From positions 64,001-128,000 of the forward strand of contig JAVJQW010000047.1 of assembly GCA_040218735.1 (NCBI GenBank): a stretch of 64,000 bases of DNA. Direction: 5' to 3'. A program made the translations under genes and the position numbers. Shown here piece after piece: positions 7,813 to 31,290 of the stretch. Every line of letters begins with the position of its first letter. Positions within the stretch are counted from its first letter, which is position 1. The DNA is from Deltaproteobacteria bacterium. GTDB lineage: Bacteria > Myxococcota > Kuafuiibacteriia > Kuafuiibacteriales > Kuafuiibacteriaceae. The notes under the pieces were generated by a model. It worked only from the letters and a program-made list of their open reading frames with translations, made no database searches and was not told where the DNA came from.

Positions 7813-9261
7813 GTGGGAGTGCGTGCGAGTTCGGCGATGGCCGCGAGCCTCTGGGTGCTCGCGAGCCTCGGCTCCGGGTGCCGCCTCAACCCGGACTGCT
7901 TCGGTGAGAACGAATGTGCCAAGGGCCTCGTCTGCGCCCAAGGCGAGTGCACCCACCCCTCACTGCTGCTACCCGAAGCCGGGGTCGACGGCGAGAACGA
8001 CGGCGGCGGCGGCACCACGACCGCGACGTGGTGCGACGTGGAGCCGATCGTCCTGCGGCGCTGCCTCCCCTGCCACAACAACCCCACGTCCAACGGCGCG
8101 CCGGTCTCCCTCGTCGACTACGCCAACACGCAAATGACCGGCACCGGCGGGCTGCTGACCTACGAGACCATGGCGCTCCGCATGGGATCGTCCGTGAGCC
8201 CCATGCCCCCCGCCGTCGCGCCGCCCGCGACCGCGGAGGAGATCGCGATCGTGCAGGCGTGGGCCGACGCCAACGCGCCCGACTGTGCGAACCGCCCGCG
8301 CGACGCCGGTGTGCCGCGCGACGCAGGTGTCGAACCGCCGCGTGACGCCGGACCGCCACGCGACGCCGGGCCGCCGCGCGACGCGGGACCGATGCGCGAC
8401 GCCGGGCCGATCGACCCGCTCTCCGTGATGGGCAACGCCGCCCAGATCGCGCAGATGCAGTTCCTGGACAACGCCGCGGGCGCCGTCTGGTACCCGACGG
8501 ACCAGGTGATGCTGTTCGCGGATCCTCCGCAGAACCTGATCTTCCAAGCGGCCCCGCCGCTGTTCGAGTTCGCGAACTTCCGCACCGGCTCGATGTCGTC
8601 GAACGGGATGGACATCGACCCGGACGGCAACCTGATCGTCACGGAGCTCACCGGGCGCCGCATCGCGCGCCGCGAGGGCGTCGTCTACACGACCGTCGTC
8701 GACAACTACCAGGGGATGCGTCTCAACTCGCCGAACGACGTCGCGGTCCGGTCGGACGGCGTCATCTACTTCACCGACACGCCGTTCGGGACACCCAACC
8801 CCGCCGACCGCGAGATTCCATTCAATGGCGTCTACAGCTACGTGCCGACGGCCACCACCGCGGCGCTCCGCCTCGAGTACCAGGGTGCGTTCAACGCTTC
8901 GACGCCGACCGGCTGCGAGCTGTCGCCCAACGAGGACATCCTGTACGTCACGGACTTCTCGAACGGCGCGTTCTACACGTTCGACGTGCTCCCCAACGGG
9001 CGCCTCGCCAACCAGCAGACCTTCGCCAACGAGCCGCCCCCGGTGGACGGCCTCGCGGTCGACGCGTTCGGCAACATCTACTTCGGCACGTCGATCGGCG
9101 CCGTGGTCTACACCCCCGAGGGGGTCCGACTCGGCACCGTGCCGGGCGTGAATGGCGGCGTGAACCGTGTCGCGTTCGGCGGCGACGGCTATACGACGAT
9201 GTTCCTGATGTCGAGCACACGCATCTACTCGGTGCGTGTGGAGATCGAAGGCGTTCGCTGA
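7813..9261 (+). CDS. Lipoprotein: c-type heme domain + RDAG linker + SMP-30/gluconolactonase propeller
   Basis: Lipobox GSGC, CLPCH heme motif and SPMPP, (P)PRDAG repeats, SNGMDID, LNSPNDVAVRSDGVIYFTD, DGLAVDAFGNIY. Confidence 0.85.
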   Translation: MGVRASSAMAASLWVLASLGSGCRLNPDCFGENECAKGLVCAQGECTHPSLLLPEAGVDGENDGGGGTTTATWCDVEPIVLRRCLPCHNNPTSNGAPVSLVDYANTQMTGTGGLLTYETMALRMGSSVSPMPPAVAPPATAEEIAIVQAWADANAPDCANRPRDAGVPRDAGVEPPRDAGPPRDAGPPRDAGPMRDAGPIDPLSVMGNAAQIAQMQFLDNAAGAVWYPTDQVMLFADPPQNLIFQAAPPLFEFANFRTGSMSSNGMDIDPDGNLIVTELTGRRIARREGVVYTTVVDNYQGMRLNSPNDVAVRSDGVIYFTDTPFGTPNPADREIPFNGVYSYVPTATTAALRLEYQGAFNASTPTGCELSPNEDILYVTDFSNGAFYTFDVLPNGRLANQQTFANEPPPVDGLAVDAFGNIYFGTSIGAVVYTPEGVRLGTVPGVNGGVNRVAFGGDGYTTMFLMSSTRIYSVRVEIEGVR

Positions 9262-10235
9262 TGCGCGGTGAGCGGGTCGGCAGCTTCCGCCTCCACCGTG
9301 ACCTGCACGACGGGCGCGCCGCGCGTTACTCGATCGCGTCGCACGTCGACGAAGGCGACAACCCCGGCGCGTTCGTGGTCGCGCGTTATCACGATCGCGT
9401 CGCCGACGACGACGAGGCGCGAGGTGATCTCGCCGCGGCCTGGGAGGCCCGTCGCGAGCGTGTCACCTCACGGGTCGCGAGCGTCGTGGAGCACGAGGTG
9501 ACGCCCGCGCTCACCTTCGTCGCCACGCGCTACCTCCCGGGGATCGACCTCGCCGCATTCGCTCGAATGGAACGCGAGCAGAAGCGCCGCATCGACGTCC
9601 CGTTCGCGGCGCGCATCGTCGCCGAAGCCGCACGCACGCTGGACGACGTGGGTCAGGCGATCGGCTTCGACGCGATCGACTTCGACGCTCAGAACGTCCG
9701 CCTCGGCTGGGACGGCGCGGTTCGACTGACGCTCCCCGTCACGCTGGCGCTCGGCGTCGACGACTCGACCCCGGCCGCGCCGGATCTCCGGCAGCCTTCC
9801 CCCGAAGGGGTCATCGGTGCGGAGCTCACCGCGCCGTCGCTCGTGTTCCAGCTCGGGCTCGTCCTGTACTGGCTCGTCGAGGGGCGGCACCCGTTCCAGG
9901 GGTCGACGCCGATGGGGACGTTCATGCGGATCGTGGAGGGCCGCCCGGACCCGCTCGCGCACCCCAGCGCGGAGCTCGACGCGATCGTCGGGTGCGCGCT
10001 CCAGCGCGAGCAGATTCGTCGCTTTGCCACGCCGCGTGAAATGGCCGAGGCGATCGAAGCGCAGCTGTCCCCGGCGCCCACCGCGTCCGTGGCCGAGACC
10101 CTCGGCGCGCGTTGCGCGCAGGCGCGCCAGGAGGACCTCGACCTCGACGACGACTTCTCGACGGCCGGGACACAAACCCAGCCGGACCCCGAAGAGCAGA
10201 CCGTCGAGGACGCGGGGCCCGTGTTCCTCGATTAG
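9261..10235 (+). CDS. Degenerate Ser/Thr kinase-like protein (probable pseudokinase)
   Basis: Kinase C-lobe remnants (QNVRLGWDGAVRL, SPE, VFQLGLVLYWLVEGRHPF, RFATPREM) but no GxGxxG, HRD or DFG. Confidence 0.7.
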   Translation: MRGERVGSFRLHRDLHDGRAARYSIASHVDEGDNPGAFVVARYHDRVADDDEARGDLAAAWEARRERVTSRVASVVEHEVTPALTFVATRYLPGIDLAAFARMEREQKRRIDVPFAARIVAEAARTLDDVGQAIGFDAIDFDAQNVRLGWDGAVRLTLPVTLALGVDDSTPAAPDLRQPSPEGVIGAELTAPSLVFQLGLVLYWLVEGRHPFQGSTPMGTFMRIVEGRPDPLAHPSAELDAIVGCALQREQIRRFATPREMAEAIEAQLSPAPTASVAETLGARCAQARQEDLDLDDDFSTAGTQTQPDPEEQTVEDAGPVFLD

Positions 10236-10260: not shown

Positions 10261-11547
10261 ATGATGTTGTCCTTGGTCCTCGGTGCGGCGATCGCCGCGT
10301 CCCCTACGGCCGACCTCTCGAAGATTCAGTGGATGCACGACGACGCGCCCGGCGCGTTCGCGAAGGCGAAGAAGGCGAAGCAGCTCGTCGCCGTCGATGT
10401 GTGGGGGACGTGGTGTCACACGTGCCTGATGATGCAGAACTTCGCGTTGAAGGAGCGGCCGATGGCGAAGGTCGCGAACAAGCTCGTGTTCCTCGCGATG
10501 GAGTACGAGTCGGACAAGAACACCGACTTCTTCGCGAAGTTCCCGATCAACGCGTTCCCGACGTTCCTGGTGATCGACCCGAAGACCGAGAAGGTCGTCG
10601 CGCGCTGGGTGGGGTCCGGGACGTCCGAGCAGATGGCGGAGTTCTTCGCGACCGCGGACCCGAGCGACGATCGACCGTCGGTGCGGGCGCAGCGACTGAT
10701 CGCGAAGCGCAGCTACGCCGAGGCGATCGAGATCCTGGAGGGTGCGCTCGCGAAGGCCTCGGCGACGGAGCGGAACGCGCTCTACCCGCCGTACATCGAG
10801 GCGCTCTGGAAACACGACACGAAGGCCTGCGCGACCAAGGGCGCCGAGCACCTGGATCGATTCGACGATCGCACCGCGGCGGGGATCGATTCTATGCTGC
10901 TGCTCAGCTACTGCGCGACGGCGCTCGAAGATCCCAAGCCGCTCTACGGTCGGCTCGCGAAGCGCCTCGCGACGGTCGCCGCCAAACCTCCGAAGTCCTT
11001 GGAGGCGGACGAGGTCGCGGGAGTGATGCTCGGGCTCGCCGACGTCTACGACGCGCTCGGGGAGAAGAAGAACGGTGACGCCGCCGCGAAGAGGGCCGCG
11101 ACAGTGCTGGAGCAGGCGGCGAAGCGCGCGCCGTCGATCGCGGTGCGCACGACGTACGACTACCACCGGCTCCTCGCGTACGTGCGCCTCGGCCGTCACG
11201 CGGAGGCGCTGAAGATGCTGACCGCGTCCGAGAAAGCGCAGCCGGACGACTTCAACCACCCGCACCGCATCGCGTACCTGTACCTCGAGCTGGGCAAGAC
11301 GAAGGAGGGCCTCGCGGCGATCGATCGTGCGCTGAAGATCGGGTACGGCGGGCGGCGGCTGCGGCTGCACGCGACGAAGATCGATCTGCTCCTGAAGGCG
11401 AACCGCCTGACGGAGGCGCAGGCTCAGGTCGACGCCGCGAAGAAGGAGCTGGCTTCGATGAACCCCGCCAACACACGTCAGGGGTGGATCGACATGCTCG
11501 AGGCGCGCGCGAAGAAGGTCGAAGCGCAGCTCAAAAGCAGGGGATGA
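10261..11547 (+). CDS. Exported thioredoxin-like (WCHTC) + TPR protein
   Basis: Signal peptide, VDVWGTWCHTC, FPTFLVID, followed by helical TPR-like repeats. Confidence 0.8.
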   Translation: MMLSLVLGAAIAASPTADLSKIQWMHDDAPGAFAKAKKAKQLVAVDVWGTWCHTCLMMQNFALKERPMAKVANKLVFLAMEYESDKNTDFFAKFPINAFPTFLVIDPKTEKVVARWVGSGTSEQMAEFFATADPSDDRPSVRAQRLIAKRSYAEAIEILEGALAKASATERNALYPPYIEALWKHDTKACATKGAEHLDRFDDRTAAGIDSMLLLSYCATALEDPKPLYGRLAKRLATVAAKPPKSLEADEVAGVMLGLADVYDALGEKKNGDAAAKRAATVLEQAAKRAPSIAVRTTYDYHRLLAYVRLGRHAEALKMLTASEKAQPDDFNHPHRIAYLYLELGKTKEGLAAIDRALKIGYGGRRLRLHATKIDLLLKANRLTEAQAQVDAAKKELASMNPANTRQGWIDMLEARAKKVEAQLKSRG

Positions 11548-12406
11548 GCCCCTTCTTCGGGAAGTAGTAGCCGAAGACAAAACACATCTCGTCGGCGGCC
11601 GAGGGCCCGTACTCGACGGTGAAGTCGTCGGCGTTGTCGTACGTGCACTCGAAGCGGACGACGTCACCGTTGGTCACGGGGATGGGGTCGTCGAAGAACT
11701 CGACCTCCGGGTCGTCCCAGCGATCGTTCGAATAGACCTGATCGGACTGACCGTCGCGAATCACCTGCGTGGTGGCGAGGACACCGCGCTGGTGAAAGTG
11801 TGATGACATCGAGAGCAGACCGATCGTGTCGCGGATCGTGCAGTCTTTCTGGATGGTGGTGCGTTCGTTGGGCGGGAGCGTGATCTCGAGCGTCGTGAAC
11901 CCGTAGAGGTCGACGTGGGTCCGCGCCGGCGCCTCGGCGGTGTGCAGATTGAGCGCGAACTGCTGCTCGGCCGGCGCGTCGGTCACGTTGATCCAGTGCA
12001 GCTGCATGATGATGAGGGTGTTCGGCGGGAGCGGGAACGCCATCCCGTCCGGGAAGCGGTAGTCGACCGCGCCCGACGAGCCGTCGACGATCGGGCGCGC
12101 GCCCACGAAGAGCTCGAACTCGTCGGGGCACGGACCGAAGCCATCCTCGCGCTCGAGATCCGACATGAAGATGTTGAAGTGGTGCTGCCCGGGGCGCTGG
12201 TTCGTCTGGAAGCGAACGACCTCCAGCTCCTCGGCGTTGTTCATGTTGAGGTGGTAGCAGCGCGTGCGCTCCTGCCCCGCGTCGAGGACGAAGGGCTCGG
12301 AGAGGAGCTGCACCCCGCGCTCGGGGGGTTCGAGCAGGCCGTCGTAGCCGGCGACGCCGCTGCCGCACGCCGACAGGAGGGCGACGGCGAAGATGCTGAC
12401 TCTCAT
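11531..12406 (-). CDS. Copper type II ascorbate-dependent monooxygenase (PHM-like) lipoprotein
   Basis: ATG 12406 MRVSIFAVALLSAC; HH (GQHHFN), QLHW, SHFH and DEMC copper-ligand pattern. Confidence 0.8.
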   Translation of the reverse strand: MRVSIFAVALLSACGSGVAGYDGLLEPPERGVQLLSEPFVLDAGQERTRCYHLNMNNAEELEVVRFQTNQRPGQHHFNIFMSDLEREDGFGPCPDEFELFVGARPIVDGSSGAVDYRFPDGMAFPLPPNTLIIMQLHWINVTDAPAEQQFALNLHTAEAPARTHVDLYGFTTLEITLPPNERTTIQKDCTIRDTIGLLSMSSHFHQRGVLATTQVIRDGQSDQVYSNDRWDDPEVEFFDDPIPVTNGDVVRFECTYDNADDFTVEYGPSAADEMCFVFGYYFPKKGLIPCF

Positions 12407-12752
12407 GCGAAGCGACACTGCAGACTCGAAGCCAACCGTGAAAGCTGTCGTCTTGGGAAGGTGGGGCGACGATTCGGCCCAACTCGGGCGGCCCGAATCG
12501 CGCGGCGTTGACAGTTCGTAAGCTGTACAGACTTGCCCACACCCTGTTGCCTCTTGCCCTCGGGGGCGTCGTAGCACCGCTGACTTCAGCGGCGCACAGC
12601 GGGGTTCGGTTGTAGTCCGCGCGCGCAGTGCCGTCGCCGCGCACGCTTGTCCACGAGTTCCCACATGTTGGGACGATCGCGATTTTGTTGCGTCTTCCTC
12701 GTTCAGCGCCGAACGCGACGCGCGGTTCAGGACGAGGGATCCGCACATCGGG

Positions 12753-12768
12753 TGGCACGTCCGTTGCG
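12753..12768 (+). promoter_or_regulatory. Sigma54 -24/-12 promoter of the RiPP operon (TGGCACG-TCCG-TTGCG)
   Basis: Near-perfect consensus with GG at 12754-55 and GC at 12766-67; predicted start about 12779; RBS AGGAG at 12823-27. Confidence 0.75.
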
Positions 12769-12833
12769 ATGTTCGTGCGTTCGACACCGAGCGCCGCGGG
12801 AGATGCGGCGTTCTCAAACGATAGGAGATCGAA

Positions 12834-13094
12834 ATGAAAGCACCGACCGTCAACGCGCGCGCGATCGACACTTGCGCGTCGTCCATGAACGCCGCGACGG
12901 CCCGTCCCGAGTTCGATGCCAAGGGCATCGAGACCTGTGCCTCGTCGTCCAATGCGCCGAGTGAGGCCGTGGCGAAAGCCGAGCCCGACTTCGAGCGTCA
13001 GCCCATCTCGACCTGCGCGTCGTCGATGTCTGCGCCCGGACAGATGGACTCGTTCACCACGGCGGCCGCGCGCACGCCGAACAAGTTCGTCTGA
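12834..13094 (+). CDS. Putative RiPP precursor with three I-x-T-C-A-S-S cassettes
   Basis: Strong RBS; IDTCASS, IETCASS, ISTCASS (Cys14, 35, 61) each with Pro at -10; directly upstream of RRE and two rSAM genes. Confidence 0.85.
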   Translation: MKAPTVNARAIDTCASSMNAATARPEFDAKGIETCASSSNAPSEAVAKAEPDFERQPISTCASSMSAPGQMDSFTTAAARTPNKFV

Positions 13095-13102
13095 GCTTGG
13101 AC

Positions 13103-13145
13103 ACGTCCCCGCGGGTCGGCCACGGCCGCCCGCGGGGCGTCTTTT
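13103..13145 (+). terminator. GC-rich hairpin + short T-tract between precursor and maturase genes
   Basis: ACG-T-CCCCGCGGG-T-CGGC / CACG / GCCG-CCCGCGGGG-CGT followed by CTTTT. Confidence 0.6.
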
Positions 13146-13162
13146 CGGAAAGGTCACAGGTC

Positions 13163-13678
13163 ATGCACGAACGAAGAACACCCCGGCTGATGCGCCACGT
13201 CCGCCTCCGCAAACGCGAGCCCGTCGCCTACGACGGGAAGAAGCGAACGATCTACGAGCTCAACGACGTCGCCGCCGCCATGTTGCGGCTCGCCGACGGC
13301 AAGAACGACGTCGACGTGATCGCCGAGGCGGTCGAGAGCGACGCCGAAACGGTCCGTGCCTTCATGGACGACTGCGCGGCGGCCGAGTTCGTCGAGTGGC
13401 TCGACGGCGACGCCGCGACCTACCGCGTGCCCGAGCTGGAGAAGGGCTTCCGGCTCCGCAGGAACGAGCCGATCGGGTACTCGGGGCAACAGTCGGCGAT
13501 CTTCAAGCTGAACCCGACCGCCTACGAGATCCTGCAGCAGGTCGACGGCGAGCGAGACGAAATGCAGATCGCGATTCGCTGCACGAGCGAGGAACAGGGC
13601 GGCGCCTACCTGGCGACGTGCCGACGGTTCCTGGAGCGCTGCGCTTCGGAAGGGATGGTCCGATGGAAGACCGCCTGA
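13163..13678 (+). CDS. Tandem PqqD-family / RiPP recognition element (RRE) protein
   Basis: Two copies of the PqqD pattern: YELNDVAAAMLRLADGKNDVDVIAEAV..VRAFMDDC and FKLNPTAYEILQQVDGERDEMQIA..CRRFLERCASEGMV. Confidence 0.8.
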   Translation: MHERRTPRLMRHVRLRKREPVAYDGKKRTIYELNDVAAAMLRLADGKNDVDVIAEAVESDAETVRAFMDDCAAAEFVEWLDGDAATYRVPELEKGFRLRRNEPIGYSGQQSAIFKLNPTAYEILQQVDGERDEMQIAIRCTSEEQGGAYLATCRRFLERCASEGMVRWKTA

Positions 13679-14619
13679 ACCTGTACGGCACGCCGCACCG
13701 CCTGCGCGACGACGAGCTGCTCGACGAGCTCACTTCTCCCTACTTCGCGACGTGGTACTGCACACGTCGCTGCAACCTGTCTTGCGCGCACTGCTTCGTC
13801 GACGTCACGTCGGGCGGGCGCGACCCGATCGACACCGAGACCGCGATGCACATGATCGATGGGCTCGTCGAAAACGACGTCTACCAGCTGGGCTTCGCCG
13901 GCGGAGAGCCGTTCCTTCGGCCGGACTTCTACACACTCGCGGCGTACGCGCGGGACCAGGGCCTGACGATCCAGGTCGCGACGAACGGCCTCTTCCTCGG
14001 CGACGAGCCGGTGGAGCGGCTCCTGGACGTGGGCTTTCGGTGCATCCAGATCAGCCTCGATGGCGCGACCGCGGCGAGCCACGACGTGCTGCGCGGCGCC
14101 GGTCGATTCGACGCGGCCCTCGAGGGCGTTCGCGCTGCGGTGCGCAAAGAGCTCCCGGTGGTGCTCGCGATCGCGGTGCACCGCGGGAACCTCGACGAGG
14201 TCGAAGCGATGGTCGACCTCGCGGAGCGCGAGGCGGCGATCATCCTGAAGGTGCAGCCGGTGTTCACGTCCTTCGCGTGGCGCGGCGAGGACGGCGCGCT
14301 GACGCCGGACGAGGTGCGCGACGTGGTCGCGCGGGCGCGTCGGCGAGCCCGGAGCGTAGAGCTGTCGATCCCACGGTGGGCGCAGATCCTCGAGGATCGC
14401 TCCGGCGAGCGCACCTGCGCGTCGACGCTCCGCAACGTGTCGATCCTCGACGACGGCCGGCTCTCCCTGTGTGACTTCGGTCCGGAGCACGCCTTCGGCG
14501 ACGTCACGCGGAACGACTTCTTCGACGAGTGGCGCCAGGTCGTGTCCCAGCACCACCTGCGGCAGCGGTGCGGGTGCACGCGGTACCTCGAAGCGGAACA
14601 GAAGGAGGTGGCGGCATGA
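13663..14619 (+). CDS. Radical SAM protein with truncated SPASM (twitch-like) domain
   Basis: TRRCNLSCAHC, AGGEPF, ATNG, QISLDG; C-terminal C..ILDDGRLSLC and RCGC only; overlaps RRE gene by 16 nt. Confidence 0.9.
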   Translation: MEDRLNLYGTPHRLRDDELLDELTSPYFATWYCTRRCNLSCAHCFVDVTSGGRDPIDTETAMHMIDGLVENDVYQLGFAGGEPFLRPDFYTLAAYARDQGLTIQVATNGLFLGDEPVERLLDVGFRCIQISLDGATAASHDVLRGAGRFDAALEGVRAAVRKELPVVLAIAVHRGNLDEVEAMVDLAEREAAIILKVQPVFTSFAWRGEDGALTPDEVRDVVARARRRARSVELSIPRWAQILEDRSGERTCASTLRNVSILDDGRLSLCDFGPEHAFGDVTRNDFFDEWRQVVSQHHLRQRCGCTRYLEAEQKEVAA

Positions 14620-15743
14620 ACCCGATCGCGCCCTACTCGGTCACCTGGTACATCACCAAGCGCTGCAACCTGACTTGCACGCACTGCTTCAACTACGAGC
14701 CCTGGGAGACACCGCGACGCGCGGACGAGGAGCTCGACTTCGACGACGCCAAGGCGATCGTCGACCAGCTCGCCGACGCGGGGGTGTTCAGCCTCGCGTT
14801 CGGCGGCGGCGAGCCGCTGACGCTCCCGTGGTTCGTCGACCTCATCGAATACTGCGACCAGGCTGGCATCGACACCTTCCTGTCGACGAACGGTGCGCTC
14901 CTCGATCGGCGAAAGGTCGAGCGCCTCGCGGCCGCCAACGTCACCGTCGTGCAACTCAGCCTCGACGGCGCGACGAAGGCGACCCACGACGCCATCCGCG
15001 GCCCTCGGAACTTCGACCACGTGATGCGCGCTGCCGGGCTGCTCGAGGAGCTGGGCATCGACGTGCAGTTCGCCTTCACGCTGATGAAGACGAACCAGGA
15101 CGAGATCGACGACCTCCTCGACCTCTGCATCGAACAGCGCGTCCCGATGCTGAAGCTCCAGCTGTTCCTCCCCACCGGACGTGCCGCGGAGGACCGCGCG
15201 CTCACCGTGCCCCCGGAGCAGTTTCGTGCGATCGTCGACAAGGTGAAGGCGTTCGAGCGCGCGTCCGGCGGCAAGCTCGCCGTCGACTACCCCTGCTTCA
15301 CCGGGCACATGGACGGCCTCGCGGAGTCCAACTGGCGCCTGGGCGAGAAGGCCACGAAGCTCTCGTGCGGCGCCGGCACCACCCGCGCCGTGATCTTCGA
15401 AGACGGCTCCGTCGGCACCTGCGAGTTCATGCGCGACGACAGCGCTTCCGACCTGCGCAAGGAGTCGTTCCTCGACGTGTGGCACGGCGGCCACGACGCC
15501 ATCGAACGCTGGCGGCGCCTGAACCTCGTCCACGGCAAGTGCGGCTCGTGCGGGTACCAGTCGGAGTGCGGCTACGGCTGCCGCGCCAACGCGTACTTCG
15601 CGGGCGGCGACTTCTACGGCGACGACCCGTCGTGCATCGCATCGCCCCCCGAGGGCGTCGAACACCCGTACTACGCAAAACAACGCGCCGTCCGAGCACC
15701 GCCGAACGGCCTCGTCCAAATCGGAGGGCTCGCCGCCCCGTGA
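14616..15743 (+). CDS. Radical SAM/SPASM protein
   Basis: TKRCNLTCTHC, GGGEPL, STNG, QLSLDG; full SPASM CGAG..IFEDGSVGTC..CGSCGYQSECGYGCRA..DDPSC; ATGA overlap with the previous gene. Confidence 0.92.
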   Translation: MNPIAPYSVTWYITKRCNLTCTHCFNYEPWETPRRADEELDFDDAKAIVDQLADAGVFSLAFGGGEPLTLPWFVDLIEYCDQAGIDTFLSTNGALLDRRKVERLAAANVTVVQLSLDGATKATHDAIRGPRNFDHVMRAAGLLEELGIDVQFAFTLMKTNQDEIDDLLDLCIEQRVPMLKLQLFLPTGRAAEDRALTVPPEQFRAIVDKVKAFERASGGKLAVDYPCFTGHMDGLAESNWRLGEKATKLSCGAGTTRAVIFEDGSVGTCEFMRDDSASDLRKESFLDVWHGGHDAIERWRRLNLVHGKCGSCGYQSECGYGCRANAYFAGGDFYGDDPSCIASPPEGVEHPYYAKQRAVRAPPNGLVQIGGLAAP

Positions 15744-16288
15744 TCCGAATCGACGACGGCGACCTCGTCCTCCGCAGCCCGACGCTCGACGACGCCCCGG
15801 TCATCTTCGCGGCGGTCGACGCCGACCGGGCACGGCTGCGCCGATGGCTGCCGTGGGTCGACCTCACGAAGACCCCCGACGACACCCGCGCGTTCGTGGA
15901 GCGGAGCCTCGCCGGGCTCGAAGCCGGCACCGCGATGGACCTGGTCCTCCTTCACGACGGCGCGTTCGCCGGGCTCGCCTCGCTCGTCGACATCTCGTCC
16001 GCGAACCGCCGCGCGATGATCGGCTACTGGATCTCGAGCGGCCGCGAAGGGCGCGGCCTCGTCACCCGGGCGGTGCAGCGGCTCCTCGCCCACGGCTTCG
16101 ACACCCTCGGCCTCGAACGCATCGGCCTGTACGCGGCGACCGACAACACACGCAGCCGCGCCGTCGCGGAGCGCTGCGGCCTCACGTTGGAGGGCGTGCT
16201 GCGCCACCACGAATTCGTCGACGACCGCTTCGTCGACCACGCCGTCTACGCGATCCTCGCCGAGGAGTGGCGCGATGCTCGGGGCTGA
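15740..16288 (+). CDS. RimJ/RimL-family GNAT N-acetyltransferase
   Basis: LRRWLPW, IGYWI..GRGLVT, NTRSRAVAERCG..EGVLR..D..VYAIL; GTGA overlap. Confidence 0.88.
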   Translation: MIRIDDGDLVLRSPTLDDAPVIFAAVDADRARLRRWLPWVDLTKTPDDTRAFVERSLAGLEAGTAMDLVLLHDGAFAGLASLVDISSANRRAMIGYWISSGREGRGLVTRAVQRLLAHGFDTLGLERIGLYAATDNTRSRAVAERCGLTLEGVLRHHEFVDDRFVDHAVYAILAEEWRDARG

Positions 16289-17639
16289 TCGGGTCGAGAC
16301 GATCCGCGCCGCGCACGCGCTCTCCGAGCACCGCGCCGAACGCCCCGCGCGCGCCCCCGCGCCACAGGACTGGTCGACGTGTGTCCCGCCGCTACACTTC
16401 CCCGGCGCGGAGCTGCTCCCGGCGACCGCGCGCCACCGAAACATCTCCGTCGCCGACACCCTCGCCGGGCGCTGCCCGCAAGCGCCGATCGACATCGGAA
16501 CGATCGCCCTGCGCACCCTCGGCGTGACGGTCGAACGGCGCCGCGGCTCGAGTCGCTGGTTCTGCCACGCCAACCCGTCGAGCGGGAACCTCCACCCCAC
16601 CGAGCTGTACGTCCTCGACGGTCGCGACGTCCTGCATTTCGCAGCGCGCGAAGGCGCGTTCGCGCGCATCGGCCGCCTCGAAGACGAAGCCCCCACGACG
16701 TTCGTCCTCACGCAGATCGCCGAGCGCCAGTGCTGGAAGTACGGCGACCGCGGCGTGCGCTACGCCGAGCTGGACCTCGGGCACGCCGTCGCGGGGCTGC
16801 GTCTCGCCGCCGCGAGTCACGGGCACGAACTGAGACCGATCGACGGCCTCTTCCTACGCGATGTCCTGGGACTCGACGGTCGCGAAGGCGAGACGATCGG
16901 CGCTGCGTTCACGACGGGGGCGCTCGACGCGATCACCGTCGAGCATCTCCTCCCCGCGTCGAAGCTGCGTGGCTTCGACTGGCCCGGCGCACGGAGCACG
17001 GCGCGCGCGATCGAACGTGCGCCGTTCACGACCTCGCGCGGGCACGCCCCTTCGGTCCGGATCGACGGTGACTTCGACGCGGTCGTCACCGCACGCCGCA
17101 GCGCCGCCGCTTTCGCCGACGCGCCGATCTCCCGCGACACCTTCGACCGCCTCCTGGAGTCCACGCTCGGGGGCAGCGCCTTCCTCGGGGCGGCGTCGGT
17201 CGACCTCCTCCTCTTCGTCCACCGCGTCGAAGGCCTCACGCCCGGCGCCTACCTCTTCCGTCGCAGCGACGCCGATCACTCGAACGCCTTCGACCCCGAC
17301 TTCGGCTACACCCCGGTCGGACCGCGACTGTACCGGCTCGACGAAGACGACGTCCGCGCCCACGCCCGCGCGGTGCACGTCGACCAAGCGGTCGCGAGCG
17401 ACGGCGCGTTCTGCCTGACGATGCTCGCGCCGCTCGACGAAACCCTCGCGACCGAAGGCGCCGGCGCCTACCGACGCCTCCACCTCGAAGCCGGCGCGAT
17501 CGGCCACGTGCTCTACCTCGGAGCGACCGCCCTCGGCCTCGGCGCCACGGGCATCGGCGCGTTCTACGACGTCGCGTTGAAACAGATGCTCGGGACCGAG
17601 CTCACGCCGCTGTACGGCTTCGCGGTGGGTGCGACCTGA
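16275..17639 (+). CDS. SagB/ThcOx-family FMN dehydrogenase (two nitroreductase-like domains)
   Basis: NPSSGNLHPTELY, WKYGDRGVRYAELDLGH, RRS, AYRRLHLEAGAIGHVLYL..GATGIGAFYD; 14-nt overlap with GNAT. Confidence 0.85.
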   Translation: MLGADRVETIRAAHALSEHRAERPARAPAPQDWSTCVPPLHFPGAELLPATARHRNISVADTLAGRCPQAPIDIGTIALRTLGVTVERRRGSSRWFCHANPSSGNLHPTELYVLDGRDVLHFAAREGAFARIGRLEDEAPTTFVLTQIAERQCWKYGDRGVRYAELDLGHAVAGLRLAAASHGHELRPIDGLFLRDVLGLDGREGETIGAAFTTGALDAITVEHLLPASKLRGFDWPGARSTARAIERAPFTTSRGHAPSVRIDGDFDAVVTARRSAAAFADAPISRDTFDRLLESTLGGSAFLGAASVDLLLFVHRVEGLTPGAYLFRRSDADHSNAFDPDFGYTPVGPRLYRLDEDDVRAHARAVHVDQAVASDGAFCLTMLAPLDETLATEGAGAYRRLHLEAGAIGHVLYLGATALGLGATGIGAFYDVALKQMLGTELTPLYGFAVGAT

Positions 17640-17646
17640 GGTCGGC

Positions 17647-18042
17647 TCAACGACCGTTGCCGGTGTCGTTCCCCGAGTCGCGCACCCCGGCGTCCGGGCA
17701 GCCCGTGCCCCACGCCGCGAGGACCATGTTCAGGTCGCGCACGTCGACGACGCCGTCTTCGTTGGCGTCGCCTTCGGGCCCTGGCTCGCCCCACAGCTCC
17801 TGCACGAGATCGAGATCCACGCTGTCGACGCAGCCGTCGCTGTTGATGTCCGCGGCGTGGGACGGCCCGCCATCGCGGCGCGCGAACCCGCCGTCACGTG
17901 TGCCCGCATCGAGGAACCCCGCGTCGACTTCGTTGCCCGCGTCGCGCGCTTCGTCGAGCTCCTCGATTCGAGGATCCGGCTCGAGCACGATCGGCCCGCA
18001 CCCGGCCGTGAAGAGCAGCGCGACGATCAGAGCTCGAACCAC
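17647..18042 (-). CDS. Lipoprotein with one dockerin-like (paired EF-hand) module
   Basis: Lipobox TAGC, DAG linker, ADINSDGCVDSVDL..WG and GDANEDGVVDVRDLNMVLAAWGTGC. Confidence 0.75.
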   Translation of the reverse strand: MVRALIVALLFTAGCGPIVLEPDPRIEELDEARDAGNEVDAGFLDAGTRDGGFARRDGGPSHAADINSDGCVDSVDLDLVQELWGEPGPEGDANEDGVVDVRDLNMVLAAWGTGCPDAGVRDSGNDTGNGR

Positions 18043-18794
18043 TTCGTGAGCTCCTGCGCACGCGCGGTGCCGGGTTGGCGCGCGACGAGCTCGCGCGCAA
18101 TGACACGTCCGCGCTCCACACGATTCATGCGCGCGTAGCAGACGGCGAGGTAGTAGAGCGCTTCTTCTTGCAGGACCCCGCGAGGGAACGTGCGCCGGTA
18201 GCGCTCCAGCAGCTGCGCGGCGCGCTGCAGGTCTTCGCCCGCCGCGACGAGTGGAACGGCCTCCGAGATCCACGCCTCGCCTTCACTCGCGTCTTCGGGG
18301 AGACATCGCGTCGCGGACTGGCCCGCGGTCAGGAGCACAGCGTCGTAGCCCTCCGCTTCGACGCGCACCATGCCGTGGCGAACTTCGACGTCGGTGCAGA
18401 GTCCTTCGGTCTGCACTGTGAAACCCGTGCCGACGACCTCCACCAGCGCGGACGGTGTCCGCACGCGGAAGGGCGAGCGGTGCTTGCGCTTCGGCACCTC
18501 GAAGCTCGCCCGACCGCGCGCGAGGTAGAGCTCGGTCGCGACGGCGTCGTCGCGTTCGACGGTCAGCTCGCTTCCCGGGGCCTCTTCGATCGTGGGCGCC
18601 ACCGCGACCGGCGCTGCGACGCGCGGCGCGGGCACGAGCTGCCAGCACACCACGGCGGCCGCCATGGCGGTGGCGAGACCGAGCACCAGCGGCCCCGACC
18701 GCCGACGACGACGGGCGTGGATGCGTTCGAGGGAGCCGCGCACGATTCGGTCATGCACGTCGGGGCGCGGCGCGAGGCGAGCGAGGTGCCTCAT
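18027..18794 (-). CDS. FecR-domain anti-sigma factor with C-terminal TPR
   Basis: Single TM, LARGRASFEV..FRVRT..VEVVGTGFTV..VEVRHGMVRV (FecR), YRRTFPRGVLQEEA. Confidence 0.82.
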   Translation of the reverse strand: MRHLARLAPRPDVHDRIVRGSLERIHARRRRRSGPLVLGLATAMAAAVVCWQLVPAPRVAAPVAVAPTIEEAPGSELTVERDDAVATELYLARGRASFEVPKRKHRSPFRVRTPSALVEVVGTGFTVQTEGLCTDVEVRHGMVRVEAEGYDAVLLTAGQSATRCLPEDASEGEAWISEAVPLVAAGEDLQRAAQLLERYRRTFPRGVLQEEALYYLAVCYARMNRVERGRVIARELVARQPGTARAQELTKWFEL

Positions 18795-20503: not shown

Positions 20504-21157
20504 TCAGCTGCAGCCCCGACCCCACGCGGCGAGGAGGATGTTGAGATCGACGGTGTCGACCGTGCCGTCCCCGTTGATGTCGCCGGCGCCGGAGCCGCCC
20601 CAGTTCGCGAGGAGGCCGTCGAGGTCGTCTTCGTCGACGCAGCCGTCGCCGTTCAGGTCCGGAGTCCCGCTCGCGAGGCATCCGGTGCCCCAGTTCGCGA
20701 GGACGATGTTCAGGTCCTGCACATTCACCGTGCCGTCTCCGTTGATGTCCGCCGGGTCCGGCGTCGTGCCCGTCGAGACACCCCACGCCGCGATGACGGC
20801 GTCGAGGTCGTCCTGGTCGACGCACCCGTCGCCGTTCACGTCGCCGTAGACGCCACAACCGGTGCCCCAGTTCGCGAGGACGATGTTCAAATCCTGCACG
20901 TCCACGGTGCCGTTGCCGTCGATGTCTTCGGCGAGGTTGCGACCGGTCGCGCCCCACGCCGCGAGGACCGCGTCGAGGTCGTCTTGATCGACGCAGCCGT
21001 CTCCGGTCGCGTCGCCGCGGACACCGGCGCTGGTGCCCGTGGAGACCTCGGACTCGGAGGTCTCCACGGCGGAGGTCTCGTTGCCCACCGGGCCGCCGCA
21101 CGCGATCAAGAGGAAGGTGAGCGCGCTCGAGGCGCACGTGTGCACTGCTTTGTTCAT
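20504..21157 (-). CDS. Lipoprotein with three dockerin-like modules (six DxxGDGxVDxxDL..AWG loops)
   Basis: RBS GGGAG; lipobox LIAC; six EF-hand-like loops alternating GCVD and GTV(D/N) types. Confidence 0.85.
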   Translation of the reverse strand: MNKAVHTCASSALTFLLIACGGPVGNETSAVETSESEVSTGTSAGVRGDATGDGCVDQDDLDAVLAAWGATGRNLAEDIDGNGTVDVQDLNIVLANWGTGCGVYGDVNGDGCVDQDDLDAVIAAWGVSTGTTPDPADINGDGTVNVQDLNIVLANWGTGCLASGTPDLNGDGCVDEDDLDGLLANWGGSGAGDINGDGTVDTVDLNILLAAWGRGCS

Positions 21158-21284
21158 TTCATGGCTCCCTAAGAGATGGATTGGGAGGCGCCTTGCCTCT
21201 CCTGGGGGTGCCAATGTGATGAGGACGCGGAGTTGATCCGCGGCGCGTGAAAAAAGTCAGCTTTCGGGGAGCTCGGACCGACCG

Positions 21285-28138: not shown

Positions 28139-29794
28139 ATGCGCCACGAGGACGAAACCGAGCGCACCCTCGATCGCTCGCAGTTCGAAGCCCAGCAGGA
28201 TCGCGGACGCCGACTGCGCCTCGTCGTCATCGGCGACGACCTCGTCACCACGCACCCGATCCCCACGCGCGGCACACTGCTCATCGGTCGCGACGCCGCG
28301 TGCGACGTCTTCGTCGACCACGCGTTGATCTCAAGAGAGCACGCGCGCGTCACCGCGTCCGAGGGGAGCGTCACCGTCGAGGACCTCGGCAGCCGCAACG
28401 GCACGCGCGTCGACGGACGTGCGTTGGAGCCGGGCCGCCCCGTCGAGATCTCCTCCGGGCAGTTGTTCGAAGTCGGCGAGACGTCCTGTCTGGTGCAGGC
28501 CTCCCACGCCGCCCCCCGGGCGCGTCGCCTCGCGACACACGGCTACTTCGAAGCACGCGTCGAAGCGTTGTGCGCGAGCGCCGCGGGCGGCTTCTCGGTG
28601 CTGCGCGTGCACCTCGGTGACGACGTCGACGCGGGCACCGCGCTCGCCGCGTTGAGCGAAGCCGACCTCGTCGGCAACTACGCCACCGGTGAGCTCGAAG
28701 CGCTCCTGCGGAGCCCCGACGCACGCGAGCGAGCGGAGACCCGGCTCACCGCATTGGAGGGGACGCGGTGCGGCGCTGCGGTCTTTCCGAGCGACGGCCG
28801 CACGGTGGACGAGCTCCTCGAGACGGCGTGTCGCCGAGTGCTCGGTCCGAGTCGAACGGCGCCGGCGGGGCGGATCGTCGCCGACCCGCGGATGAAGGAT
28901 CTGTACCGCGTCGTGGAGCGCGTCGCGCGCGGGACGATCAGCGTCCTTCTGCTCGGCGAGACGGGCGTCGGCAAGGAGGTCGTCGCGGAAGCGATTCACC
29001 GCGCCTCGCCGCGACGCCACCGCCCGTTCCTCCGCCTCAACTGCGCGGCGCTCTCCGACACACTCCTCGAGAGCGAGCTGTTCGGGCACGAGAAGGGAGC
29101 GTTCACCGGAGCGAGCGAGCAGCGCGCCGGCCTGCTGGAGTCGGCGCAGGGCGGGACGGTGATGCTCGACGAGCTCGGCGAGATGCCGTTGCCGACGCAA
29201 GCCAAGTTGCTCCGCGTCCTCGAGCAGCGGCAGGTGATGCGCGTGGGCGGGCGCGAGCCGATCGCGATCGACGTGCGCTTCGTCTCCGCGACGAACCGCG
29301 ACCTGGAGGCCGAAGTGCTGAGGGGGACGTTCCGGCAGGACGTCTACTTCCGCCTCAACGGCGCGGCGCTGACCGTGCCGCCGCTACGCGAGCGTCCGTT
29401 GGAGATCGACGCGCTCGCGGAGCAGTTCCTCGGGCAGGCGTCGGCGGACCTCGATCTGGATCCGCCGCTCGAGCTCTCCGACGCCGCGCGCGAGCTGTTG
29501 AAGGCCTACGCGTGGCCGGGCAACGTGCGCGAGCTGAAGAACGCGATCGAACGTGCGGCGCTGCTGACGACGGGCGACGCCGTGGAGCCGGAGCACCTCC
29601 CGATGGAGAAGATGTCGCTACCGCAGATCGGCGACGCGTCCTCCGCCGAACAGGCCGAGCGTCAGCGCATCCTCGACGCGCTCGAGAAGACCGCGGGCAA
29701 CCAGACCCGGGCCGCCGCGTTGCTCGGGATCGGGCGTCGCACGTTGACGACCAAGCTGACGAAGTACGGCATTCGCCGCCCGCGTAAGCGTTAG
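28139..29794 (+). CDS. FHA-domain sigma54-dependent transcriptional activator
   Basis: IGR..ISREHA..DLGSRNGT (FHA), degenerate GGDEF-like region, GETGVGKE, GAFTGA, LDELGE, WPGNVREL, C-terminal HTH. Confidence 0.93.
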   Translation: MRHEDETERTLDRSQFEAQQDRGRRLRLVVIGDDLVTTHPIPTRGTLLIGRDAACDVFVDHALISREHARVTASEGSVTVEDLGSRNGTRVDGRALEPGRPVEISSGQLFEVGETSCLVQASHAAPRARRLATHGYFEARVEALCASAAGGFSVLRVHLGDDVDAGTALAALSEADLVGNYATGELEALLRSPDARERAETRLTALEGTRCGAAVFPSDGRTVDELLETACRRVLGPSRTAPAGRIVADPRMKDLYRVVERVARGTISVLLLGETGVGKEVVAEAIHRASPRRHRPFLRLNCAALSDTLLESELFGHEKGAFTGASEQRAGLLESAQGGTVMLDELGEMPLPTQAKLLRVLEQRQVMRVGGREPIAIDVRFVSATNRDLEAEVLRGTFRQDVYFRLNGAALTVPPLRERPLEIDALAEQFLGQASADLDLDPPLELSDAARELLKAYAWPGNVRELKNAIERAALLTTGDAVEPEHLPMEKMSLPQIGDASSAEQAERQRILDALEKTAGNQTRAAALLGIGRRTLTTKLTKYGIRRPRKR

Positions 29795-31290
29795 CGCGCT
29801 TGCTCGTAGCGTTCGATGCAGTCGGCGAGCTCCGAGGCGTCGGCGCGGAAGCCCGCGAGGGAAGCGCAGCGCGCGACGGAGGTGCGGTCTTCGTCGGACG
29901 GGAGGCGCTGCGCCGCGCGCTCGAGCGCCTTGGCCGCAGCGACCACCGACGCAGGATCCGACGGGTCGAAGTTGAACGCCGGAGCGGGAGGGGGCGGCGG
30001 GGGCGAGCCGACGTCGGCGCGGCGCGGTCGGAGCGGTCGGCGCGGGCTGAGCGGTCGGAGCGAGCGAGCGGGCCGGGCGTCCGCGGAGGGCGCCTCAACG
30101 GCGCGGTCGTCGGCGGGTCGGGCCACCGCCCCCGGCTCCGGAGCGACCCGCTCGACCGGGTCCGCGATCGGACCCGGCGCGCGCGACGCGACGACGGCGG
30201 CGACGCCCACGACGACCGCGAGCAGGAAGCCGATCAGCGCGGCGGAGCGCGGGCGCGGCGGAGCGACGGGTCGCGTGGGCACGGGCGTCGCGGACGTGAG
30301 GTCGCGCGGGAGGACCGCGGTGAGCGCGGGGGTTTCGATCGAACGCGTCAGCGAGTCGACCGCCACCCCCGTCTCGGCGCGGACGGGCGCGGGAGCGCGG
30401 AGGGCCTCGACGAGCGCGATGCGGAACGCTTCACACGAATCGAAGCGCTCCTTCGCCGAGAACGCGAGGGCACGGTGCACGGCGTCGTCGAACGCGCGGG
30501 AGAGCTCGGGGCGAAACGGTGCTGCGCGCGGCCTCGGTTCGAAGACGATGCGGCGCACGACGTCGGCGTGTGCGTTGGCGCCTTCGCTCGAGATCGCGCC
30601 GGACTGGATCGAAGCCGGTCGTCCGTCCACGCCGTGCGCGAACGGCCTTCGCAGCGTCGCGAGCTCGTACGCGATGACCGCGAGGGCGAACTGGTCGGCG
30701 CGTTCGTCGGCCGGGTCGCCGCGGATCTGCTCGGGCGACATGTACATCAGCGTGCCCATCATGCGTCCGACGGTGGTCTGGTCCGACGCGTCGACCTGGA
30801 CCTTGGCGATCCCGAGGTCGAGGAGGCACACCCGGTCCACGGCGCCGTCGACCTCGGTGACCATGACGTTCGTGGGTTTGAGATCCCGGTGCACGGCGCC
30901 CTCGGCGTGCACGGCCGCAAGGGCTGCGGTGAGACGATCGATCACGTGAACGATCTCGTCCTGCGTAAAACGGGACCCCGACGAAGCGCGGGCCCACATG
31001 AGCTCCCGGAGCGTCACGCCGGGAGCGAGCTCCATGGCGAGGTAGAGGGGCGCCCGTTCGGTGCTCGCGGCGACGACGCGCACCACGTTTTCGTTGTCGA
31101 TCGCCCGGAGGACTTCGACTTCGCGCGCGAAGCGTTCGACGGCTTTCTGCCGCGCCGCGACCTCGGGTTTGAGGAGCTTGAGCGCGACGTCGTCGCCCCC
31201 TTCGAGATCCTCGGCGAGCCACACCTCGCCGAACGCCCCCGCGCCGAGGGCCTTGCGCAATCGAAAGCGCCCGTCGACCGTCCGTTCCAA
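29791..31290 (-). CDS. Membrane Ser/Thr protein kinase
   Basis: LGAGAFGEV, VALKLL, HRDLKPTN, DLG, GTLMYMSPEQ, one TM helix. Confidence 0.92.
   Translation of the reverse strand: MERTVDGRFRLRKALGAGAFGEVWLAEDLEGGDDVALKLLKPEVAARQKAVERFAREVEVLRAIDNENVVRVVAASTERAPLYLAMELAPGVTLRELMWARASSGSRFTQDEIVHVIDRLTAALAAVHAEGAVHRDLKPTNVMVTEVDGAVDRVCLLDLGIAKVQVDASDQTTVGRMMGTLMYMSPEQIRGDPADERADQFALAVIAYELATLRRPFAHGVDGRPASIQSGAISSEGANAHADVVRRIVFEPRPRAAPFRPELSRAFDDAVHRALAFSAKERFDSCEAFRIALVEALRAPAPVRAETGVAVDSLTRSIETPALTAVLPRDLTSATPVPTRPVAPPRPRSAALIGFLLAVVVGVAAVVASRAPGPIADPVERVAPEPGAVARPADDRAVEAPSADARPARSLRPLSPRRPLRPRRADVGSPPPPPPAPAFNFDPSDPASVVAAAKALERAAQRLPSDEDRTSVARCASLAGFRADASELADCIERYEQAR

Follow-up and report, generated by a model that had tools for sequence, protein, structure and literature searches.

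A leaderless three-cassette peptide as candidate substrate of a rare six-gene radical-SAM RiPP-type pathway

Introduction

How would a peptide-modifying enzyme find its substrate if that substrate had no leader? In pathways to peptides that are made on the ribosome and modified after translation (RiPPs), a leader, or rarely a follower, is usually taken to be bound by a RiPP recognition element (RRE), with the enzyme acting on a core farther away. The question is raised by a 64,000-nucleotide stretch from a Deltaproteobacteria bacterium (GenBank assembly GCA_040218735.1, contig JAVJQW010000047.1, positions 64,001 to 128,000 of the forward strand; Myxococcota, Kuafuiibacteriaceae in GTDB), which we call the window. 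Here, an open reading frame (ORF) for an 86-residue peptide with three self-similar cassettes is followed by genes for a two-domain RRE protein, two radical S-adenosylmethionine (SAM) enzymes, rSAM1 and rSAM2, a GNAT acetyltransferase, and a SagB-type flavoprotein (Table 1).

We propose, at a probability of roughly 55%, that the peptide is the leaderless, self-addressed, three-module substrate of a rare six-gene radical-SAM RiPP-type pathway, modified on Cys and recognized through sequence elements inside each cassette. The comparisons below draw on five known precursors that fall in two clades: those of the window (GC content 69.5%), P0002, P0003 (the product of locus L001, on a 69% GC contig of a metagenome-assembled genome, MAG), locus L002 (a Myxococcota MAG of 49.6% GC), and P0028.

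Results

Three cassettes held at the protein level

Translation of the ORF returned the peptide exactly as quoted in a preliminary description of this DNA. The three cassettes proposed there are 17-residue units that align without gaps, with Pro -10, V/F -8, N/D/E -7, Ile -3, T-C-A-S-S, and Ala +6 (numbered from the Cys) all at the places given. Pairwise, the units are identical at 10/17, 9/17, and 9/17 positions. The best non-overlapping triple of 17-mers reaches 28 summed identities, compared with a mean of 12.8 (standard deviation 1.3) and a maximum of 18 over 1000 shuffles of the peptide; 0/1000 attained 28, and the repeat signal lies about 11 standard deviations above the shuffles. A cruder test, that some 4-mer occur three times, was weaker and was passed by 370/100000 shuffles. 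Within the six reading frames of the window, L001, and L002, the full cassette pattern was confined to the precursor ORF.

The likeness of the cassettes had been ascribed to selection on the protein and not to recent duplication of DNA, and our comparisons bear this out. The codons cited for T-C-A (ACT TGC GCG, ACC TGT GCC, and ACC TGC GCG) are correct, and codons differ at 8/10, 4/9, and 2/9 of the identical residues in the pairwise comparisons. Only one direct repeat is detectable in the DNA, 18 nt shared by cassettes 1 and 3. Because so many identical residues differ in codon and the DNA repeat is so short, the resemblance is taken to be held at the protein level. The comparison with L001 points the same way, as 84 aligned precursor codons comprise 40 that are identical, 25 with synonymous changes only, and 19 that change the amino acid.

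The cassette is also the part of the peptide that persists across loci. A comparison of repeat number among homologues, suggested in the preliminary description, gave exactly three cassettes in 5/5 known precursors. Cassette 1 begins with residue 4 in 3/3 loci, and the first Cys is residue 14 in the four full-length precursors with a checked start. Across the three loci, 9/9 cassettes agree at six of the 17 positions: Pro -10, Ile -3, the Cys, Ala +1, Ser +2, and Ser +3. At -8, seven of these nine carry F and two carry V, M occupies +4 in 7/9, A occupies +6 in 8/9, and a basic residue or Gln stands at -5 or -6. Since the Cys-to-Cys spacing varies between precursors (21/26, 21/25, and 30/31), the cassettes resemble beads joined by linkers that vary. 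Between the clades, the precursors are 49% identical over the 67 aligned residues of the cassette region, compared with 41% for the RRE protein, 52% for rSAM1, 61% for rSAM2, 34% for GNAT, and 33% for SagB; hence, this region is conserved as much as the enzymes. Overall, identity between the window and L001 amounts to 79-80%.

Each P-x-F-[D/E] had been read as a possible internal recognition sequence. A site inside the cassette is indeed favored by the retention of Pro -10 and Ile -3 in 9/9 cassettes and of F/V at -8 across clades whose RRE proteins are 41% identical. The acidic residue did not stand: position -7 is variable (N, D, E, Q, T, or S), and the corrected pattern of the N-terminal half is P-x-[FV]-x-x-[RKQ]-x-I.

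Table 1. Coordinates of the precursor, its parts, and the genes that follow, counted from the first nucleotide of the window.
Feature	Coordinates	Strand	Remarks
Upstream stop and ribosome-binding site	12822..12827	+	In-frame TAG 12822-12824 overlapping AGGAG 12823-12827, 6 nt before ATG
Precursor gene	12834..13094	+	86 aa plus stop; Cys at residues 14, 35, 61; no Pfam or NCBIfam family
Cassette 1	12843..12893	+	Residues 4-20, Cys14
Cassette 2	12906..12956	+	Residues 25-41, Cys35
Cassette 3	12984..13034	+	Residues 51-67, Cys61
C-terminal tail	13035..13091	+	Residues 68-86; contains the word DSFT, Phe at +13 from the last Cys
Hairpin	13107..13145	+	GC-rich; 9-bp perfect stem 13107-13115 / 13129-13137 (inner stem 13127-13139), then TCTTTT
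RRE protein	13163..13678	+	171 aa, stand-alone, two PqqD-type RRE (winged-helix) domains by Pfam PqqD and AF2 model
rSAM1, radical-SAM enzyme	13663..14619	+	318 aa; CX3CX2C Cys37/41/44; four conserved C-terminal Cys 252, 270, 303, 305
rSAM2, radical-SAM/SPASM enzyme	14616..15743	+	375 aa; CX3CX2C Cys17/21/24; seven C-terminal Cys
GNAT acetyltransferase	15740..16288	+	Acetyltransf_3, RimL-like; predicted GTG start
SagB-type flavoprotein	16275..17639	+	454 aa; two-lobed nitroreductase fold

A selected coding sequence with no room for a leader

A small frame of this kind might have arisen by chance in GC-rich DNA, or might encode a small protein with a regulatory or structural role and no connection to the neighboring enzymes. 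High-GC DNA does yield many spurious ORFs, several longer ones overlap the precursor region in other frames and on both strands, and the peptide matches no Pfam or NCBIfam family. These overlapping ORFs are the usual by-product of GC-rich DNA. The precursor, in contrast, keeps its position and orientation in 3/3 loci, one of which, at 49.6% GC, is of a composition where spurious ORFs are rare. It also shows the synonymous excess in the comparison with L001 and the repeat signal described above, and it is framed in all three loci by a ribosome-binding site, a close upstream stop, and a downstream hairpin. We therefore regard an ORF that is no substrate as highly improbable and largely refuted by the locus comparison. 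On these sequence grounds, the precursor ORF is a real, selected coding sequence (GC at codon positions 1/2/3 = 0.52/0.62/0.86).

The nearest in-frame upstream stop lies 3, 3, and 7 codons before the start in the window, L001, and L002, respectively, and no alternative start intervenes at any of the three loci. With a stop just 3 codons upstream and the first cassette beginning at residue 4, there is no room for an N-terminal leader, in agreement with what had been claimed. The final 20 nt before the ATG are the same in the window and L001. The hairpin begins 13 nt past the precursor stop and differs in sequence in L001 and L002; it is likely an attenuating terminator or an mRNA-stabilizing stem between precursor and enzyme genes.

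An Rfam scan of 12300-13250 found no family, and a consensus scan of the region upstream of the precursor found no sigma-70 promoter. The 427 nt upstream of the precursor (12407-12833) share conserved blocks with L001 3178-3587, one of which contains TTGACA near 12505-12530, and a T-rich block lies near 12679-12700. A Protein Atlas search gave no usable feature match for the precursor, whose structure model has a predicted local distance difference test (pLDDT) value of 0.24, too low for its structural matches to carry meaning.

The C-terminal tail as a possible follower

In follower-peptide RiPPs of the bottromycin type, a conserved C-terminal extension carries recognition. The unique tail of the peptide had been put forward as such a follower, and the RRE protein would then bind the region past the last cassette and leave the cassettes as pure cores. 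In a refined form, each core n would be served from downstream, by the N-terminal half of cassette n+1, and core 3 by DSFT in the tail. A peptide without a leader needs another handle, and the tail offers candidates. Its initial 13 residues are conserved in the pair of window and L001, no 4-mer outside the cassettes other than DSFT is common to both clades, and every Cys has F or Y at +13 to +22, with the last Cys having it at +13/+14 in 3/3 loci.

Comparison weakens these observations. The retention of the tail in the window and L001 means little, given how alike the two are overall, and between the window/L001 clade and the L002 clade the tails fail to align despite their 41%-identical RRE proteins. 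Within the L002 tail, a 15-nt unit is repeated in tandem 5.9 times (L002 2273-2363) and encodes KDVQH-like pentapeptides. P0028 has fewer copies and is otherwise identical to the L002 precursor (127 vs 147 aa), so that tail length is polymorphic and the array loosely constrained. DSFT itself is a tail word in the window type yet sits in linker 2 of the L002 type (about 2169-2180 of L002), each time with its Phe at +13/+14 from a Cys, and the match is marginal and post hoc, as 786/20000 shuffles do as well (p about 0.04). Moreover, docking downstream of each core would give the conserved N-terminal half of cassette 1 no job. A cassette whose core has disappeared may have left DSFT behind. The claim for the tail is thus weakened, although its conservation within one clade holds, and we consider a follower-directed system quite unlikely. 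From the sequences compared, recognition inside the cassette is favored over a follower.

A two-domain RRE protein without fused partners

The five genes downstream of the precursor lie on the same strand and overlap each other by 4-16 nt, given the predicted start codons of the enzyme genes. The RRE protein scores 46.9 bits against Pfam PqqD over two stretches (cut-off 23.4), and its L002 orthologue scores 50.9 bits. Its halves are 35% identical to each other, and its AlphaFold2 (AF2) model (pLDDT 94.2, predicted template modeling score 0.62) consists of two strand-rich, three-helix domains. Structural matches to single domains of the model, with template modeling (TM) scores by target, include lasso B1 (6jx3_B, 0.74), TbiB1 (5v1v_A, 0.65), the PbtF RRE (8t19_A, 0.60), and PqqD (5sxy, 0.53). 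Both halves are similarly constrained, with 28/84 and 31/87 columns invariant among three tandem proteins.

Neither radical-SAM enzyme has a fused RRE, nor would one fit, as CX3CX2C begins with residue 37 of rSAM1 and residue 17 of rSAM2. The Radical_SAM scores of the two enzymes are 84.7 and 102.7 bits. For rSAM2, Pfam SPASM stands just below its cut-off in the window (21.4 vs 21.5 bits) and at 22.5 bits in L002. The four C-terminal Cys of rSAM1 and the seven of rSAM2 are all kept in L002. The nearest solved relatives of the two enzymes by sequence are PqqE, SkfB, CteB (5v1q), and anSME, all of them peptide-modifying. In rSAM1, Cys252 (window 14410-14430), the first of the auxiliary-cluster Cys, stands in a T-C-A-S-T context that resembles the T-C-A-S-S of the substrate; since the residues of L001 and L002 differ there, the likeness is probably a coincidence.

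The SagB-type protein reaches 86.4 bits against TIGR03605 (cut-off 78.4) and contains a [KR]-Y-G-D-R-G-x-R-Y stretch in 3/3 orthologues, with K-Y in two and R-Y in one; we take its Lys-Tyr motif to be of significance. This generic SagB domain model aside, the five operon proteins stay below the cut-off of every specific NCBIfam model, and the best models for the radical-SAM enzymes, AhbD/NirJ and MftC, fall well below their thresholds. No YcaO match was found among the operon genes or the neighbors scanned, and the system is therefore not a pathway to thiazole/oxazole-modified peptides (TOMM type), though the SagB-family model is matched.

The enzymes might instead read C-A-S-S together with Ile -3 and Pro -10 directly, with the tandem RRE protein acting mainly as a scaffold that bridges the two enzymes, or binding something else. 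In that case the peptide may stay whole and thrice modified, for instance as a three-site metal or redox center, and not be cut into three products. Three cassettes are kept in 5/5 precursors although linkers and tails vary, which suggests that the count matters in its own right, there is no conserved protease or exporter, and the peptide has no signal peptide and starts on a cassette at residue 4. TvgB is reported to accept repeat-only substrates (PMC9062424), and a leader-independent radical-SAM maturase is reported as well (PMC12715619). However, both RRE domains are as conserved as the enzymes, which is hard to explain without peptide binding, and the pLDDT of 0.24 for the peptide gives no sign of a folded small protein. 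In the StsABC system, omission of the discrete RRE is described as lowering modification (PMC10288494). Direct reading by leader-independent enzymes is thus possible but doubtful.

Six genes as the functional unit of a rare family

A word-indexed search of 5.8 billion clusters returned two relatives of the precursor, P0002 (98%) and P0003 (79%, identical to the L001 precursor), and a profile search added P0028. An exhaustive HMMER search of 1.84 billion representatives with the RRE protein gave 23 matches at E <= 0.001. Besides the query's own cluster, one of these is a full-length two-domain protein (P0006, E 3.9e-31), which makes two 50%-identity clusters of the tandem protein. Another 16 are single PqqD-like proteins of 66-115 aa, and five are long or repetitive, among which P0021, P0024, and P0025 were set aside as unrelated repeat proteins. 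When genome contigs were searched with three tandem RRE proteins, just two loci, L001 and L002, emerged among 57 pattern matches. The family is extremely rare, and with five precursors and two tandem-RRE clusters in databases of this size, standard family-based mining would miss it.

In a plasmid collection, tblastn with the RRE protein found no match, and rSAM1 found eight records, all at 29-38% identity, five of them annotated mftC. Two of these were examined in context. A Microbulbifer plasmid with three radical-SAM genes and one PqqD gene was rejected as a relative, as no cassette is present in its small ORF and its PqqD is unrelated to the RRE protein of the window (best BLASTP E 0.010, across 14 residues). 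A Rhizobium plasmid with two radical-SAM genes and no RRE was rejected likewise.

All six genes occur in the same order in 3/3 loci, precursor first and co-oriented. Synteny of L001 with the window extends even upstream, but the flanks of L002 are unrelated, the upstream one coding for an ion channel and the downstream one for a HAD hydrolase. Because L002 keeps the six genes within these unrelated flanks, they are the functional unit, and the divergent copper-monooxygenase-like lipoprotein, the thioredoxin-TPR protein, and the pseudokinase of the window lie outside it. The lipoprotein gene (11531-12406, minus strand), which carries a Cu2_monoox_C domain (peptidylglycine-monooxygenase-like, 52.8 bits), diverges from the precursor and has the same place in L001; it is absent from L002 and was excluded as a member of the system. 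The L001 precursor ends in Gly, and that of the window does not.

Other genes of the window

Just downstream of the operon, on the minus strand, are two small proteins with dockerin/EF-hand-type repeats and a FecR-like anti-sigma gene next to an apparent extracytoplasmic function (ECF) sigma gene (17647-18273, 18027-18794, and 20504-21214). Neither the anti-sigma gene nor the dockerin/EF-hand proteins are kept in L002. Farther away, adjacent genes for Ni_insertion (LarC-like, 418 bits) and AIRC (LarB-like) proteins at 36490-38666 (minus strand) suggest biosynthesis of the nickel-pincer cofactor. The window also encodes a 1213-aa fusion of a Ser/Thr kinase with an nSTAND1 NTPase (40818-44459, minus strand), further kinases at 29791-31290, and a kinase-like gene at 9261-10235, as is typical of Myxococcota chromosomes.

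Discussion

How the cassettes could be recognized and modified

From its gene content, the six-gene system appears to be an RRE-dependent, radical-SAM, RiPP-like pathway. It has a precursor beside the enzymes, an RRE, and a radical-SAM core with auxiliary Cys, it lacks a leader and a protease or exporter, and both binding and modification of the peptide are predicted. In the pathway we propose, the N-terminal half of a cassette would dock as a short strand on the two-domain RRE protein, and the invariant C-A-S-S-[ML]-x-A half would bear the modified Cys. Because neither radical-SAM enzyme has its own RRE, the tandem protein could be an adaptor common to both, presenting the cassettes in turn, plausibly with one RRE domain per enzyme. 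The first chemistry would most likely be a radical, Cys-centered reaction inside the cassette. Our first choice, which is a guess, is a small thioether ring from Cys to backbone or side chain across C-A-S-S, of the sacti- or ranthipeptide type. Two-electron oxidation by the SagB-type flavoprotein would come next, and acetylation by the GNAT protein could serve tailoring or self-protection. The binding site, the order of steps, and the chemistry are all predicted in this scheme, the cassettes may or may not be separated by cleavage, and up to three product variants are possible. Complex predictions of the tandem RRE protein with the precursor scored 0.20 and 0.21 against a mark of 0.32; as these were run without controls, we count them neither for nor against binding.

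Several points weigh against this scheme. The docking half lies 3-10 residues before the Cys, closer than is usual in solved RRE complexes, and given this closeness one cassette may dock while its neighbor is modified. Ile -3 and Pro -10 might just as well belong to the modified core, as ring acceptors for instance, and not to a docking element, and DSFT could be a downstream docking element for which the scheme has no explanation. The positions called invariant rest on five sequences from two clades. The cassettes do not pair by position between clades (8-11/17 identities, vs 9-12 within L002), and for this reason concerted evolution could inflate their apparent conservation. A Foldseek search of the PDB with the RRE model gave no match at E <= 0.001, and the match ranked first was no RRE but a methyltransferase that has a winged-helix domain. 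No protease or exporter occurs among the six conserved genes, and the flanks that might supply one differ between the window/L001 and L002. The sactisynthase models were missed by a wide distance, with StsB at 99.8 for rSAM2 and 79.6 for rSAM1 vs 625, and SkfB at 66.8 vs 300. Full-length similarity is, moreover, described as misleading on radical-SAM chemistry (PMC10288494).

A more specific and, in our view, unlikely picture can also be drawn. Here the precursor would be a self-addressed multi-core peptide with an 8-residue address in each 17-residue cassette, each RRE domain would act for one enzyme, and the three cassettes and the orphan DSFT would form a relay in which one cassette, or the tail remnant, docks while its neighbor is modified. 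The product would follow the logic of pyrroloquinoline quinone (PQQ) and mycofactocin and be an intracellular, Cys-derived cofactor or metallophore, made in three copies per peptide, and not a secreted antibiotic.

If cassette-internal recognition through the tandem RRE protein is true, a leaderless precursor with three internally addressed units and a two-domain adaptor would offer a compact system for studying how recognition is coupled to catalysis, and it would show how one adaptor serves two radical-SAM enzymes. The product may carry a new modification, since the enzyme set (two radical-SAM enzymes, a SagB-type protein without YcaO, and a GNAT protein) matches no named system. A description of the six-gene system was not found in the main texts of the open-access literature searched.

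Comparison with known systems

PQQ (PqqA/D/E) and mycofactocin (MftA/B/C/D) resemble the system in combining a short peptide, a discrete PqqD-type RRE, and a radical-SAM/SPASM enzyme, with no need for an exporter. The PqqD models are the best-scoring named relatives of the RRE protein, MftC (166.6 bits) and PqqE (124.2 bits) are among the best for rSAM2, and the best solved match is PqqE 6c8v. PqqA as a whole is about the size of one 17-21-residue cassette, and in mycofactocin biosynthesis a flavoprotein follows. However, the equivalog cut-offs are missed (PqqD 27.9 vs 46 and 31.5 vs 101, PqqE 124.2 vs 381.35, and MftC 166.6 vs 265), and the precursor has neither the Glu/Tyr pair nor the C-terminal Val-Tyr of the PQQ and mycofactocin peptides. 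The system also differs in its peptide of three units, its second RRE domain, and its second radical-SAM enzyme. Pathways with several radical-SAM enzymes fit no better. NCBIfam scores are 16.1 vs 100 for ScmD, 93.7 and 88.7 vs 400 for ScmE, 88.6 and 89.5 vs 400 for ScmF, 75.6 and 126 vs 400 for GeoRSP, and 61.6 and 114 vs 400 for ACGX. Judged by curated cut-offs, the system lies outside the PQQ, mycofactocin, SynChlorMet, GeoRSP, ACGX, StsB, and SkfB families.

Cyanobactin precursors of the PatE type contain several cores, each flanked by short conserved recognition sequences. They also have a long N-terminal leader bound by the RRE of the heterocyclase, and the sequences at each core serve proteases; the present unit, in contrast, has no leader and no conserved protease. 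The cyanobactin oxidase ThcOx (8pz5_A, 5lq4_B) is listed among the structural matches of the RRE model. We take ThcOx to consist of two consecutive RRE-fold domains fused to a SagB-like FMN oxidase that works with YcaO chemistry. Here, unlike in ThcOx, the RRE domains make up a protein of their own (171 aa), apart from the SagB-type protein, and there is no YcaO. In the tiarin and trifolitoxin clusters, SagB-family FMN dehydrogenases are proposed as azoline-independent primary modifiers, and a GNAT protein is described as acting on the processed product as immunity (bioRxiv 10.64898/2025.12.02.691738). This precedent suggests two possible roles for the GNAT and SagB-type genes of the present operon. 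The tiarin systems differ in that the RRE is fused to the dehydrogenases and the leader is a normal one, and the portions of that report used here mention no radical-SAM enzymes (bioRxiv 10.64898/2025.12.02.691738).

For the proposed chemistry, the nearest likeness is with sactipeptides and ranthipeptides. StsABC is described as combining a Cys-containing precursor, a radical-SAM/SPASM enzyme, and a discrete RRE protein that improves processing, and StsB is reported to be MftC-like by full-length similarity, to use the discrete RRE, and to form Cys-Gly sactionines (PMC10288494). Streptosactin is reported to contain two 4-residue sactionine rings (PMC9389541). StsA has a leader, however, and StsC a single RRE domain, according to the same account of StsABC (PMC10288494). 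Neither the layout of three cassettes nor the SagB/GNAT pair occurs in these sacti- and ranthipeptide systems, and the radical-SAM enzymes here remain far below the StsB and SkfB cut-offs.

The closest parallel for a short motif repeated along a precursor is the TvgA/TvgB pathway to poly-cyclopropylglycine, in which a radical-SAM/SPASM enzyme is described as modifying every repeat (PMC9062424). TvgB is reported to modify synthetic peptides made of TVGG repeats only (PMC9062424), so recognition inside a repeat unit has a precedent. The Tvg repeats differ in being 4-residue TVGG motifs located C-terminally, behind an unmodified N-terminal part, whereas the present units are 17 residues long, start at residue 4, and are separated by linkers that vary; Tvg repeats are modified on Val, whereas we propose Cys. 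The portions of the Tvg report used here make no mention of an RRE protein with two domains, a second radical-SAM enzyme, a SagB-type enzyme, or a GNAT protein (PMC9062424).

Taken together, these comparisons indicate that the machinery of the six-gene system is familiar from several RiPP-type pathways, and that the architecture of its precursor and the combination of its enzymes match no named system.

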